Source of the DNA: Microcoleus sp.
Lineage (GTDB): Bacteria; Cyanobacteriota; Cyanobacteriia; Cyanobacteriales; Microcoleaceae
Direction of reading: 5' to 3'
Assembly (NCBI GenBank): GCA_042408215.1
Contig: JAYFMW010000017.1
Location: 160,001 to 224,000, forward strand
Length of the DNA stretch: 64,000 bases
Positions 21,611-26,537 of the stretch are shown piece by piece (the first letter of the stretch is position 1; every line of letters starts with the position of its first letter). A program made the position numbers and the translations under genes. The notes below the pieces were generated by a model that worked only from the letters and a program-made list of their open reading frames with translations, was not told the DNA's origin and did not search any database.

Positions 21611-22864
21611 ATGTATCTCAAAAATCTTCACCTCCGACAATTTCGCAATTACCTAGACCAAAAGGTATTATTTGACGCTCCCAAAACTATTTTGGTGGGA
21701 AATAATGCTCAAGGAAAGTCGAATTTGTTAGAAGCGGTAGAATTGCTTTCGACATTAAAAAGTCACAGAGCAGCGCGCGATCGCGATTTAATTCTCGACT
21801 CAAAACCGATCGGGCAAATAGATGCAACACTCTTAAGCCAAACCGGCTCTATTGACTTAGCTTTAACTCTGCGCTCTCAGGGGCGTCGCACCCTAAATCT
21901 CAACGGCGAACCTCTGCGCCGTCATTTAGACTTTTTGAGCGTCTTAAATGTCGTGCAATTTTCTTGTTTGGATTTGGACTTAGTGCGCGGAGGTCCAGAA
22001 GGAAGGCGCAATTGGATCGATCGCCTGGTCATCCAATTAGAACCAATTTACGCTCATATTTTGCAGCAGTATAACCAAATTTTGCGCCAGCGAAATGCCC
22101 TTTTGAAACATTCTAAAGAAATCAGGAAAGGGGAATTTTCCGAAAATCTTGACAAAATGCGGTCTATGGAATACGAAAATCCCGAACCAGAAAATAGAGC
22201 AGAATTCCCCATGCCCCATGCCCCATGCCCCATGCCCCATTCCCCATTCCCCATGCCCCATTCAGAATTAGCTTTGTGGGATGCACAGTTAGCCACAGCG
22301 GGTGCTCGCGTGATTCGGAGGCGCGATCGAATTTTGGAGCGATTGATGCCTTTAGCTCGAAATTGGCATTCTTCAATTAGCAGTTCTACAGAAGTTTTGG
22401 ACGTGAAATACGCTGCTAATATTGAAGTAGGGGATAAATTAATCGCTAAAGACAATCTCGAAGGAGTGCGGCAAGCATTTTTAGAGAAAATTCAACAAAG
22501 GGCGATCGCCGAACAGTTTCAAGGCACCACTTTAGTCGGCCCTCACCGCGACGATATTATTTTTACAATTAACAGTACACCAGCCCGCCAATACGCCTCT
22601 CAAGGCCAGCAGCGAACATTAGTATTAGCATTAAAATTAGCCGAATTACAGCTCATTGAAGAAGTCGTCGGCGAACCGCCCTTGCTGTTGCTCGACGATG
22701 TACTAGCAGAACTCGATCTCAACCGCCAAAATCAACTTTTAGAAACCATTAAAGAACGATTTCAAACTCTGATTACTACTACCCACTTAGGCGCTTTTGA
22801 TCCTCAGTGGCTGCGAGAAACCCAAATTATCTCCGTCGTGGCCGGCCAAATCAATCAATTTTAG
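21611..22864 (+). CDS. recF: DNA replication/repair protein RecF, with in-frame heptamer insertion
   Basis: MYLKNLHLRQFRNY, GNNAQGKSN, GPHRDD, SQGQQR and LLLDDVLAELD motifs. Confidence 0.95.
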   Translation: MYLKNLHLRQFRNYLDQKVLFDAPKTILVGNNAQGKSNLLEAVELLSTLKSHRAARDRDLILDSKPIGQIDATLLSQTGSIDLALTLRSQGRRTLNLNGEPLRRHLDFLSVLNVVQFSCLDLDLVRGGPEGRRNWIDRLVIQLEPIYAHILQQYNQILRQRNALLKHSKEIRKGEFSENLDKMRSMEYENPEPENRAEFPMPHAPCPMPHSPFPMPHSELALWDAQLATAGARVIRRRDRILERLMPLARNWHSSISSSTEVLDVKYAANIEVGDKLIAKDNLEGVRQAFLEKIQQRAIAEQFQGTTLVGPHRDDIIFTINSTPARQYASQGQQRTLVLALKLAELQLIEEVVGEPPLLLLDDVLAELDLNRQNQLLETIKERFQTLITTTHLGAFDPQWLRETQIISVVAGQINQF

Positions 22865-22997
22865 ATTTTAAATTTGAGATTTGAGATTGACAAATCATAG
22901 GTTTCATCAAAGGAACACGGGATGCGGGAAACTCAGACACGAAGAGTGCTGAGAGGGAAGCGGCGCGAGGGACTTCAGTCCCCTTGTCTTTTCTTTC

Positions 22998-23405
22998 TTA
23001 ATTGGCCGAATGATGCGGGTCTTCTATATATTTTTTCACCACTTCACTACTAATATTACCCGCCGCGATCACAAAATAGCTGCTTGTCCACAAAGAGGGA
23101 AGCTTTTTTAGTTGTGGAAATTCAGATCTTAAATGATGACTGGAGCGACCCTTGAACAACTTAATCACTAGCGCTGGGGTATCTGTTGGCTTAACGGCTA
23201 CAAACAAATGTACATGGTCTGGGGCTACTTCTCAAGCCTGGATGTCCCAACCTTTTTCAATTGATAGTTCTAAAAATATTTGGCGAGTTCTAGTCGCCAC
23301 GTCACCCACTAAAACTTTCTTGCGACGCTTGGGGATAAAGACAAAGTGGTAGTTAAGCAAGAATTTGACGTGGTTATGCGTTTTATATTCGGCTAATGGC
23401 AACAT
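22998..23405 (-). pseudogene. tnpA: IS200/IS605 Y1 transposase TnpA with in-frame TGA at 23232-23234
   Basis: NYHFVFIPKRRK...WDIQA*EVAPDHVHLF...LWTSSYF...KKYIE. The HUH motif and catalytic Tyr lie downstream of the stop; both ORF pieces are in one frame. Confidence 0.9.
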
Positions 23406-23486
23406 AAATATTCTGTTGATATAGGTTGACTTATCCACTCTAGTCGCCTAGACTTGACAAATCAACCAGTCTTTAGGAAAATAGAG

Positions 23487-24815
23487 GTGACTAAAACCCA
23501 AAAAGCCATGGGAGTTCAGCAAGTATTGCTGTCGCCCAATCAGGAGCTTCAAGCATTGTTAGAGTATCTCTGTCAGCAATCTGGCAAGCTTTACAATAGT
23601 GGCGTTTACTTGGCTCGTCAAACTTTTTTCAATACAGGAAAACTGTTGGCTGGAAAGTTTGACTTATCTTTTGAATCGTCAGTTGCGAAGTCAATGGTTG
23701 CTAAGTCGTTGCCATCAACACCAATGCAACAAACATTGATGTCAGTCACGGAAGCCTTCAAATCTTTTAAAGAATTAAGAGATTTGCACATCAAAGGTCA
23801 ATTGCACTTTAAGCCCAAGCCACCAGGATATCTTACGGGCGCTAAGTTGTTCAAAGTAGCTTATCCTAATTCTGGAGGTTTACAGCCTAAACTTGTTGGC
23901 AATCAGTTAAGGTTTTCCTTGGGGTTAACGGTGAAGCGATGGTTTGGAGTCTCTGAATTCTTTCTACCTATGCCATCAAATCTGAATTTTTCAAAAGTTA
24001 AAGAGTTTACAATCCTCCCTAAGAATGGCGCTTTTTATCTGGAAACGTCCTATGAGGTTGAAAAAGAACAACATAATTTGGACATCAATCAAGCATTGTC
24101 AATCGACCTGGGGACTGCTGACAATTTAGCAGCTTGTGTCGATACACTGGGAAATTCCTTCCTGATTGATGCTCGCGCCATGAAAGCGATGAATCAACTG
24201 TGGAACAAAAAAGTAGCAACTAGAAAAGAAGGAAAGCCCGAAGGCTATTGGGACAATTGGTTAGACCGCGTAACTCGCAAACGTAATCACCAAATGCGTG
24301 ATGGTATCAATAAGGCTGCGAAGTTGATTGTCAGTCATTGCTTGAAATACAGCGTTGGGAACATTGTTTGCGGTTGGAATCAAGGTTTTAAATCTCATGT
24401 CAATATGGGCAAAAAGAACAATCAAAAGTTTGTTCAGATGCCTTTAGGAAAGCTTAGAGACAGATTAAACCAACTGTGCGATTTACACGGTATTAAATTT
24501 ACAGAAACTGAAGAAGCGTATACGTCTAAAGCCAGTTTTCTTGATGGAGACTCCCTGCCCAAGTATGGTGAAAAACCGGAAGGGTGGAAAGCATCTGGAA
24601 AACGGATTAAGCGTGGATTGTATCAGTCCGCTGATGGAGTTGTGGTGAATGCAGACTTAAATGGTTCTGCCAACATTCTCAGAAAAGTAGTCAGTAAGTT
24701 AGGTGCAAACCTTGACCGACTGAATAGACGGGTTTTGACGACCGTAGCGAGAGTTAGACTTTGGGTATTACCTAAATCTACTCTGTCTGCAGAATCTCAG
24801 TGGCTTCAGCCCTGA
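23487..24815 (+). CDS. tnpB: RNA-guided endonuclease TnpB (rearranged-RuvC type)
   Basis: SIDLG, IVCGWN, TEEAYTSK and NADLNG motifs. Start uncertain (GTG 23487 or ATG 23508). Confidence 0.9.
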   Translation: MTKTQKAMGVQQVLLSPNQELQALLEYLCQQSGKLYNSGVYLARQTFFNTGKLLAGKFDLSFESSVAKSMVAKSLPSTPMQQTLMSVTEAFKSFKELRDLHIKGQLHFKPKPPGYLTGAKLFKVAYPNSGGLQPKLVGNQLRFSLGLTVKRWFGVSEFFLPMPSNLNFSKVKEFTILPKNGAFYLETSYEVEKEQHNLDINQALSIDLGTADNLAACVDTLGNSFLIDARAMKAMNQLWNKKVATRKEGKPEGYWDNWLDRVTRKRNHQMRDGINKAAKLIVSHCLKYSVGNIVCGWNQGFKSHVNMGKKNNQKFVQMPLGKLRDRLNQLCDLHGIKFTETEEAYTSKASFLDGDSLPKYGEKPEGWKASGKRIKRGLYQSADGVVVNADLNGSANILRKVVSKLGANLDRLNRRVLTTVARVRLWVLPKSTLSAESQWLQP

Positions 24816-24855
24816 GAGTGTCAAGGTAAAAGAACATTTTTTTTGAGAAATTGAC

Positions 24856-24910
24856 CGAAAGCATCCAGGGTACAAAGCCCCGGATCTATCTGTGGGGTCG
24901 CTTTCTTCAA
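24856..24910 (+). mobile_element. About 55-bp IS200/605-derived single-hairpin mini-element (PATE-like)
   Basis: Preceded by TTGAC, contains CCCC(G)GATCTATCTGTGGGG hairpin and ends TTCAA. Confidence 0.4.
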
Positions 24911-24941
24911 TTCTTCAATCTCAAATCTCCAATCAATTGAC

Positions 24942-25144
24942 CAAAAAACTGGGATACAAGCCCCGTCCTAGAAGGACGGCTTTTTGCTAGAATACAGATA
25001 GTCGCCTCGCGGGCATTGGGAGACTCTAAACGGACGTGGAGCGACGGTAAGACGTACGGACACGGCACTGCCGTGTCCCTGCGGAGCGCGTTGCTATGAA
25101 GCGTCAAGGAATCCTCGGACTTGATAGACGGGGAGGTATGTCAA
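24942..25144 (+). mobile_element. Non-autonomous IS605 mini-element with TnpB-omegaRNA-like scaffold (family A, copy 1)
   Basis: TTGAC|CAAAAAACTGGG left end resembles the left ends of the TnpB elements ending at 30125 and 39037; ends GGGGAGGTATGTCAA; near-identical copy at 44142-44325. Confidence 0.85.
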
Positions 25145-25217
25145 ATTGTTAGCCCAATTCGAGATAGGATAAAGGTCAATTTTGATTGCGGATTTCCATT
25201 CCATTTCTCAAAACATT

Positions 25218-25470
25218 GTCAGTAACTCAGCCCTAAAGGGACTAAGCTTGTAAGAGCAATCAAGCAAGCTGTATTGACCAGCCTAAAGTCTTAACTGACT
25301 ACGTTATTCGAGTCACGACACCCCGGAATGCGAAGCTAGTTCCTTGCTCTGTCATCTGCAATTAAACAGTCTTAAAGTCACGCTCGACAGTGTTGCAGGT
25401 CTAAAAAGCTCAAATAACATTGTCCTGAACCTTGTGAAGGATCGCATTACCCAGCAATGGGTTTGGAGAC
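25218..25470 (+). ncRNA. HEARO / IscB omegaRNA-like scaffold with no IscB ORF
   Basis: Blocks GTCAGTAAC..CCCTAAAGGG..GCTTG, TTGACCAGCCT, CTACGTTAT..GACACC, GCTAGTTCC..GCTCTG, ATTAAACAG..CAGTG and AACATTGTC..ATTACC match the HEARO layout as I recall it. 3' boundary approximate. Confidence 0.8.
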
Positions 25471-25601
25471 AACCATATCTCCCTAGAGGGGCAACCATAC
25501 CCCTCTACCCCGCAAGGGGATTCACTCTTGACTGAAGTCCCCGAACCGCTTCCCTCTCAGGTCTAAAGACGCTGAGTTTCCCGCATCCCGAACTTTTTTT
25601 T
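25218..25601 (-). mobile_element. Non-autonomous IscB-type IS200/605 element (omegaRNA plus end shared with the 22908 element)
   Basis: 25530-25590 is the reverse complement of 22918-22981 except in the hairpin loops; the element abuts ATGAA of psb27. Confidence 0.75.
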
Positions 25602-26000
25602 ATGAAGCATTACCTTTCCCGTCTGCTAGCCCTGGTATTAGTTGTGGTCATCGGCGTAGCGGGCTGTACCAATGTTCCAAGCACTCTGAGTGGAGATTAT
25701 CGCCAAGACACATTAGGATTAGTGAACAGCTTGAGAACTGCGATCGCCCTACCAGATGGCGCACCGGAAAAAGCAGCCGCTCAAGCAGATGCACGCAAAC
25801 AAATTAATGATTTTGCCGCTGCTTACCGTCGCGATCCCGCCCTGACAAAGCTTTCATCTTTCACAACAATGCGAACGGCATTAAACTCTTTGGCAGGACA
25901 TTACAGTTCCTATCCAAATCGTCCCGTTCCTGAGAAGTTGAAAAAGCGTCTTGAGTCAGAATTTCAGCAAGTAGAATCTGCTCTGAACCGAGGCTCTTGA
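25602..26000 (+). CDS. psb27: Photosystem II assembly lipoprotein Psb27
   Basis: Lipobox VAGC; SFTTMRTALNSLAGHYSSYPNRP motif. Confidence 0.95.
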   Translation: MKHYLSRLLALVLVVVIGVAGCTNVPSTLSGDYRQDTLGLVNSLRTAIALPDGAPEKAAAQADARKQINDFAAAYRRDPALTKLSSFTTMRTALNSLAGHYSSYPNRPVPEKLKKRLESEFQQVESALNRGS

Positions 26001-26228: not shown

Positions 26229-26537
26229 TGTTATAGCGGTTTTATGAATGAAGTGAGGTACAGGAGGCAATTGGCAATTCACTTCTATGAAAAGGAAACA
26301 TCTATGCCCTATGCCCTATGCCCTATGCCCTATGCCCATGAGCACCTCCAGAAACCTGAGAAAGGCTATAGATTTTTCTCAGCTCGTGGCAATTCATAAA
26401 TTGTCACGCTCCAGAATTTGCATTCTGCGATCGACTTGTGCCATAAATAGATAAACAAAAAAACAAGCAAGTTTGTAGCTGTGCAAAACTGCGCGATCGA
26501 TCCCAAATTTTTCCTAGCAAACCACATTAAATTACCC

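Follow-up and report, generated by a model that had tools for sequence, protein, structure and literature searches.

In a 64-kb stretch of Microcoleus sp. DNA (G000:C17:160001-224000, where G000 is the window's own genome and C-numbers are contigs of G000; this whole stretch is called the window), the 384 nucleotides (nt) at 25218-25601, directly in front of the photosystem gene psb27, are almost certainly a PATE-like element without a protein gene, derived from an ISC transposon, the type that encodes the Cas9 ancestor IscB, and having the target N/ATGA (a slash marks an element boundary). It was found that this element ends at 25601 and that the ATGA opening psb27 follows from 25602, exactly as the initial annotation of this DNA had proposed. 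Taken as a whole, the locus probably represents a non-autonomous ISC-type element docked at psb27, which is moved in trans and whose RNA is used by an IscB encoded in trans, with the use of the RNA as the uncertain part of this statement. The element and its surroundings comprise the following features:

25165-25170, + strand: TAGGAT box, putative -10 element in the promoter of psb27, at a distance of 47 nt from the scaffold and, at present, of 437 nt from the ATG.
25198-25217, + strand: predicted omega-RNA guide, consisting of flanking DNA 5′ of the scaffold that is part of the native psb27 leader; positioned relative to HEARO model position 1.
25218-25450, + strand: IscB-type omega-RNA scaffold (HEARO), the first ~30 nt of which double as the hairpin of the transposon right end (RE) in reverse complement.
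25451-25522, + strand: post-scaffold module of class-A orphans, with an ACCCA-GCAA-TGGGT hairpin, two CAACCATA-loop hairpins (25465-25482 and 25486-25507) and CCCC-GCAA-GGGG.
25523-25601, + strand: transposon left end (LE) in reverse complement, with the hairpin CTCAG-GTCTAAAGAC-G-CTGAG plus a T-run, and containing the 19-, 15- and 12-nt blocks described below.
25602-25605, + strand: ATGA, the transposition target, predicted 3′ target-adjacent motif (TAM), and psb27 start codon plus first base of codon 2.
25602-26000, + strand: psb27, encoding the photosystem II assembly lipoprotein Psb27, 132 aa, matching PF13326 (E 1e-22), with a lipoprotein-type signal peptide with Cys, recognised by eye.

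A covariance-model scan of the whole 64-kb window against Rfam revealed RF02033 (HEARO) as the sole match above its cut-off. The match at 25218-25450 on the + strand scored 120 bits (cut-off 83; E 3e-24) and covered model positions 1-211 of 211, which bears out the HEARO-like scaffold that had been recognised earlier from the letters of the sequence. The scaffold starts at 25218, which is also the element boundary, and it begins with GTCAG and thus with a 5′-GTCA terminus. The HEARO family is named after an RNA that is followed by an HNH-endonuclease open reading frame (ORF); the window element matches the family model over its full length, but the endonuclease ORF is missing. Integration next to ATGA or GTGA has reportedly been noted for this family. 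Between 25218 and 25601, no ORF of IscB size was present, in line with the earlier claim; the longest ORF on the + strand comprises 63 aa (25344-25535) and matches no Pfam family. The window element, therefore, does not encode the IscB, with RRXRR/PLMP, split RuvC and HNH, which ISC transposons carry downstream of the omega-RNA, whereas in full-length sister elements a 423-aa IscB begins 19-22 nt past the scaffold.

The ends of the element relate it to an IS200/IS605 tnpA/tnpB element located upstream. Comparing the 3′ end of the omega-RNA element in reverse complement (25500-25610) with the LE of the tnpA/tnpB element (22900-23000) revealed three exact and collinear blocks of 19 nt (22918-22936 and 25572-25590), 15 nt (22949-22963 and 25546-25560) and 12 nt (22969-22980 and 25530-25541), with different hairpin loops between them. 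The REs of both elements are built alike, with CTYAG, an 11-nt hairpin, CTGAG, 8 nt and the boundary, and CTYAG-stem-CTGAG hairpins are present at all four ends of the two elements. Directly 3′ of the omega-RNA element, ATGAA (25602-25606) opens psb27, and its complement TTCAT (22903-22907) flanks the tnpA/tnpB element. These shared blocks, hairpins and flanks had all been pointed out in the initial annotation and were recovered here without change. With subterminal hairpins as in tnpA-bearing elements and zero coding capacity, the window element has the make-up of a PATE-like copy.

Homologues of Psb27 were searched for in 41 genomes including G000, and 30 psb27 loci were examined, namely the own locus and 29 loci from other genomes (22 from the same genus and 7 from other genera). 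In 39 of the 41 genomes, G000 included, the homologues align from residue 1 or 2. Among the relatives, G005 (locus L032) is the closest, with a Psb27 that is 98% identical and flanking DNA that is 96-98% identical. In this genome the leader runs directly into ATGAAGCAT, with ATGAAG kept and no bases between; compared with the window, one leader base differs, which lies within the last 8 leader bases and hence in the predicted guide. Apart from this base, the empty-site junction is the one that had been predicted, and it was found in other relatives as well. No insertion was present at the psb27 ATG in 20 of the 22 same-genus loci and in any of the seven loci from other genera, corresponding to 27 of the 29 non-own loci. 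The empty orthologous site shows the element to be inserted 5′ of ATGA without target-site duplication. Because the ATGA target is at the same time the psb27 start codon, all bases of psb27 were left unchanged by the insertion.

The two remaining same-genus loci, from two other species (G017, locus L037, and G003, locus L038), carry a HEARO element of 437-438 nt (133 and 150 bits, respectively) at the identical psb27 ATG position. It belongs to the class-B orphans, which have an extra structured module of ~100 nt past the scaffold. The two copies are 98.9% identical to each other, and the G017 element is 89% identical to C29:75579-76096 of the window's own genome. A single insertion event shared with the window was rejected, since only 51 + 29 nt of the elements align; this, together with the closer C29 copy, indicates a separate insertion by another orphan subfamily. 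Little weight was given to psb27 as a hotspot, for with each genome holding ~30 docked copies and ~2,000 gene starts of the ATGA type, such a recurrence among ~20 genomes is unsurprising and not statistically remarkable.

The window element is a member of a large family. In the genome, 70 HEARO matches were found, 64 of them above the cut-off, and 19 of the 70 have an ORF of at least 380 aa within 120 nt downstream. A search for the RRXRR domain gave 31 matches, including 18 open full-length frames. A core-motif search yielded 50 ends of the window type with ATGA 9-11 nt past the core motif; ATGA was part of the selection of these ends, and four ends with a good motif were without it. With so many such ends, the motif flanking the window element is not a chance feature. 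Among the 50 ends, 29 lie downstream of a HEARO. Of these 29, 25 belong to complete elements without a protein gene (349-580 nt), which differ in their 5′ flanks and thus occupy distinct sites, and four to elements of 1.4 kb, in which iscB is open in two cases and broken in two. HEARO matches were also present in all 18 genomes of the same genus that were searched and in 8 of 12 other genera of the order.

Within this family, the scaffold structure is kept, which indicates constraint. Over 24 orphans and 46 consensus pairs, canonical pairing is seen in 96.8% of the cells, and both sides have changed in 21 of the pairs. Twelve copies including that of the window form class A and have one layout in common, in which the scaffold is followed by a GNRA-type hairpin, two CAACCATA-loop hairpins, CCCC-GCAA-GGGG and the LE. 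This module is common to 10-12 of the 12 copies and shows compensatory changes. The common layout implies that class A multiplied as orphans and not via repeated deletion of iscB. In the class-A orphans, the place of iscB is taken by the tandem CAACCATA-loop hairpins at 25465-25507, whose loop is invariant and whose stems covary; these hairpins may extend the omega-RNA at its 3′ side or serve to bind a protein. A label given earlier to 25465-25480, that of a relic ribosome-binding site (RBS) and start, needs correction, as 25465-25482 forms a 5-bp hairpin with a CAACCATA loop that recurs and covaries in sister copies (GAGG/CCTC versus GGAGA/TCTCC in the stem). This hairpin resembles the GGAG...ATGTCT region of full-length elements and, judged from that resemblance, may derive from it.

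The foot of the window LE is of the type found in the tnpB element (CCCGCATCCCG) and is the only one of this type among the 29 HEARO-linked ends, the remaining 28 having foot variants of CCCACTTACCG. The inverted LE located 2.6 kb upstream carries the same foot variant as the window LE. The window LE thus appears chimeric, for which gene conversion between the neighbours or a chimeric origin could be the cause.

Possible partners in trans were found elsewhere in the genome. When the genome was inspected for iscB genes with the same ends, a check suggested by the initial annotation, open 423-aa IscB ORFs were located in elements of the same end type at C8:37798-38316 and C3:407314-407832; the C8 scaffold is 81% identical to the window scaffold over 210 nt. 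Intact sister tnpA genes (Y1_Tnp) are present at C13:77171-77515 and C30:360795-361139, adjoining LEs with the foot motif of the window type. With open iscB and intact tnpA present elsewhere, both use of the omega-RNA and mobilisation of the element in trans appear possible.

The predicted guide was placed 5′ of the scaffold, outside the element, following the rule given in Meers 2023 (10.1101/2023.03.14.532601). Within it, the 16-mer at 25202-25217 is unique in the genome. Upstream of the guide lies the TAGGAT box. In 24 of the 27 loci that are free of an insertion, this box precedes the psb27 ATG by 34-76 nt (mostly 53 nt); in the three loci with an insertion, it is displaced by exactly the element length. 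From this conservation we infer a promoter role of the box. At this same place, about 53 nt upstream of psb27 in relatives, a block (C)AATTCGAGATAGGATAAAGG is conserved across the order, which is probably a -10 region or a regulator site.

RNA-library contigs span both junctions of the element without error. Contigs X1 (25115-25274) and X6 (25116-25286) cross the left junction, and contig X2 (25553-26000) crosses the junction between element and psb27; such contigs show neither strand nor ends nor level, and DNA carry-over is possible for all of them. A joint of the empty allele that skips 25218-25601 was not among the listed joints of X1, X2, X6 and X15, though such contigs cannot prove its absence. 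Depth in these runs is not usable, being stated per contig and for a family of many copies. Transcription from the TAGGAT box would place the predicted guide, the scaffold and psb27 on a single RNA, and with the box upstream of the element and the contigs bridging both junctions, the element would be the present 5′ untranslated region (UTR) of psb27.

According to the proposed mechanism, an ISC-type element of the IS200/IS605 superfamily would have lost iscB and kept two TnpA-recognised subterminal hairpins and a complete omega-RNA scaffold. Single-strand ‘peel-and-paste’ transposition would have placed it directly 5′ of ATGA, with a Y1 TnpA supplied in trans to move it. The psb27 promoter, now upstream of the element, would transcribe the leader with the guide, the scaffold and psb27 as one RNA. 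An IscB encoded in trans and loaded with this omega-RNA would cut the element-free site, where the guide match is followed by ATGA, and recombination with the sister chromosome after the cut would restore the excised element. Retention by cut and recombination has been experimentally shown for TnpB (Meers 2023, 10.1101/2023.03.14.532601). PMC9755519 and PMC11666462 were searched for experiments that show an IscB nuclease to use ATGA as its TAM, with nothing usable found; in the papers covered, ATGA is documented as a transposition target only.

Several observations speak against a functional, trans-used element. The tnpA next to it (22998-23438, − strand) is a pseudogene with one in-frame TGA, and Pfam Y1_Tnp is matched in two pieces. 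The scaffold of the window copy, complete in the Rfam alignment, contains about a dozen non-standard pairs and ranks 44th of 70 by HEARO score. The covariation among orphans may stem in part from iscB-bearing ancestors, before iscB was lost. The nearest IscB-linked scaffold being merely 81% identical, compatibility with an IscB in trans is an assumption. The RNA-library contigs may derive from contaminating DNA. A sigma-70 consensus scan of 24800-25700 gave 0 promoter-like sites (0.8 expected in shuffles), a result which neither supports nor excludes a promoter at the TAGGAT box; the same scan found one terminator-like hairpin, in the 203-nt insert described below. Finally, the bias towards start codons reported in the next paragraph can be explained by host selection alone, with insertions elsewhere killing genes and no guide role needed. 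Some of these points would be expected of an inert relic, that is, a miniature transposon that is dead, has an omega-RNA no longer used by any IscB and persists only via rare excision and a tolerated insertion. The lack of iscB in cis, the broken neighbouring tnpA, the scaffold score below the family median with its several non-standard pairs, and the mutual identity of the copies of 77-87%, which implies no recent burst, are consistent with such a relic. We nevertheless regard it as unlikely, though worth keeping in mind, given the pairing kept over 24 orphans with changes on both sides of 21 pairs, the open IscB and TnpA genes in trans and the conserved post-scaffold hairpins.

To place psb27 within the family, the sites at which the 50 ends lie were compared with the genomic background. 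The flanking ATGA opens an ORF of at least 100 aa at 28 of the 50 ends versus 15.5% of 5053 sampled genomic ATGA sites, and an ORF of at least 60 aa at 32 of the 50 ends versus 20.3% of the sampled sites. Of the latter 32 ORFs, 30 were put to Pfam, with the two shortest (65 and 61 aa) left out, and 26 of the 30 matched a family (E ≤ 1e-5); in most cases the alignment begins at profile position 1-3 and within the first residues of the protein. The docked genes include those for EF-G, ChlB, S16, L19, HisG, CbiC, signal peptidase I, RsmH and Psb27. Restricted to HEARO-linked ends, 20 of 29 adjoin a Pfam-supported gene start, against about 12% expected; the expectation comes from a crude ORF-based annotation, in which start-codon ATGA makes up 12.4% of the ATGA sites in intergenic regions plus starts and 4.2% of all ATGA sites. 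Binomial tails for this excess are about 1e-11, based on a rough annotation and on copies that are partly non-independent. When the element was removed in silico, the upstream frame was open for merely 0-46 codons in 28 of 29 cases.

Many orphans (e.g., at C14:58763, C6:209965 and C17:257533) have a Shine-Dalgarno-like motif (AAGGAG, GGAGAGG or AAGG) within 20 nt before the scaffold, implying that the insertion separated the host RBS from the ATG. The element end supplies only a T-run before the ATG, and the psb27 leader is without a Shine-Dalgarno-like motif.

As a tentative explanation, which we consider possible and no stronger than that, ATGA-targeting omega-RNA elements may be selected to dock between a host promoter and a start codon. 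The leader would then serve as the guide and the host promoter would drive the guide RNA; the protein-less copies would form a library of ~45 trans guides for ~19 IscB genes, with host-gene expression coupled to retention. Already under the probable mechanism proposed above, a usable guide RNA would come solely from copies downstream of a host promoter, since the 5′ guide lies outside the element; this need, combined with the need of the host for expression of the gene, would account for the pile-up at ATGA starts in sense orientation. The same pile-up could result from targeting rather than retention, if TnpA finds ATGA where it is accessible as single strand (open complexes, R-loops or AT-rich initiation regions), without selection for guide-RNA transcription or host-gene expression. 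All ends abut ATGA, and A is common at the fourth position of coding sequences (2112 of 5006 crude gene calls start with ATGA), which speaks for such targeting. Among the 21 non-HEARO ends, 13 have the tnpB-type foot CCCGCATCCCG and the same ATGA target, but only 2 of these 13 adjoin an ORF of at least 100 aa (3 of 14 if a one-base foot variant is counted), versus 20 of the 29 omega-RNA-linked ends at gene starts. This makes targeting as the sole cause rather improbable; the subgroup was tallied by eye, with no script, and its elements differ from the omega-RNA elements in orientation and size, so that the comparison is not clean. Co-option of the orphans by the host, as structured 5′ UTRs through which the genes behind them, psb27 included, are tuned in transcription, stability or translation, would agree with the strong gene-start excess (20 of 29), the two hits of psb27 by different subfamilies, and the CAACCATA-loop hairpins and T-run adjoining the ATG, but is very improbable, because the closest relative lacks the insertion, as do 20 of the 22 loci of the same genus, so that it is lineage-specific, as for a selfish element, and because the docked genes are functionally unrelated.

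Compared with G005, the spacer between recF and psb27 holds three separate insertions, namely the tnpA/tnpB element, a 203-nt repeat and the omega-RNA element. The features upstream of the latter are:

22903-22907, + strand: TTCAT, target/TAM of the tnpA/tnpB element; the site is empty in G005 and most relatives (...tttcat/ggtaaaag).
22908-24824, + strand: IS200/IS605 tnpA/tnpB element, with boundaries set by comparison with G005, the LE at about 22908-22990 and the RE hairpin at 24795-24824.
24942-25144, + strand: 203-nt non-coding repeat (TTGAC/...GTCAA/), not at this site in G005, with a terminator-like hairpin at 24963-24979.

The tnpB gene of the upstream element (23454-24815) encodes 453 aa with Pfam OrfB_IS605 and Cas12f1-like_TNB, and the empty site of this element in G005 reads TTCAT/GGTAAAAG. 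Elsewhere in the genome, the 203-nt repeat occurs in at least 10 further full-length copies (83-96% identity); it may derive, with no protein gene left, from an IS200/IS605 element of the tnpB type. At about 25053-25080 it holds a nested palindrome of ~25 nt, of which there are many more short copies. An Rfam scan of 22850-25700 by E-value returned no family for the tnpB RE or the 203-nt insert; besides HEARO it gave two sub-threshold matches (E 0.12 and 0.97), which were taken as chance. In the spacer 3′ of psb27, about 5 tandem copies of the heptamer CCCTATG are found at 26298-26338.

Much of this architecture is known from other hosts. Cyanobacterial ISC transposons have 5′-GTCA termini and N/ATGA targets and share terminus and target with tnpB elements of opposite orientation (Kapitonov 2016, PMC4810608). 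The pair ISC1-1_MA and IS605B-1_MA of Microcystis aeruginosa described there likewise has 5′-GTCA, insertion 5′ of ATGA without duplication, a shared terminus and target, and empty sites recognised by genome comparison; the window element differs from the ISC1-1_MA type in being without iscB and in its length of 384 nt versus 1.3-1.7 kb. In Geobacillus, HEARO is the omega-RNA of IscB, bounded by the RE and with the guide outside the element, and one TnpA serves both TnpB and IscB elements (Meers 2023, 10.1101/2023.03.14.532601). The same source argues that transcription from outside is necessary, describes an orientation bias toward transcribed sites and notes PATE-like protein-less copies. 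ISGst1-5 of Geobacillus stearothermophilus are thus alike to the window element in the RE-bounded HEARO, the outside guide and the existence of PATE-like copies. Unlike those, the protein-less copies here keep the full omega-RNA and outnumber iscB-bearing ones by about 45 to 19; the predicted TAM doubles as a start codon, and the bias is one of exact docking at gene starts, retention having been shown for TnpB.

Because shared ends, opposite orientation and the ATGA target are already in print in these two papers, the main inference of the initial annotation, according to which either nuclease system can be carried, in opposite orientation, by a single type of TnpA end, is correct and not new. 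Docking at start codons was not found in the literature searched (‘start codon’ has 0 occurrences in PMC4810608), with supplements, Weinberg 2009 and Altae-Tran 2021 outside this search and possibly bearing on orphan omega-RNAs. The novelty is, therefore, modest and lies at the level of the family, in which orphans outnumber nuclease genes and dock at start codons; the remaining biology is mostly covered by published models.

The psb27 locus illustrates, cleanly and in nature, the published IS200/IS605 guide-RNA model, with alleles that differ by exactly the element, the native leader as the predicted guide and the start codon as the predicted TAM. For annotation, such insertions part genes from their leaders and leave the ORF unbroken. 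If selection for docking holds true, expression of psb27, chlB, rpsP, rplS and fusA passes through an omega-RNA, and IscB binding or omega-RNA processing could modulate such genes. If the orphans indeed act as guides in trans, these cyanobacteria would contain dozens of guide RNAs driven by host promoters and would offer a natural test bed for IscB maintenance and its effects on host expression.

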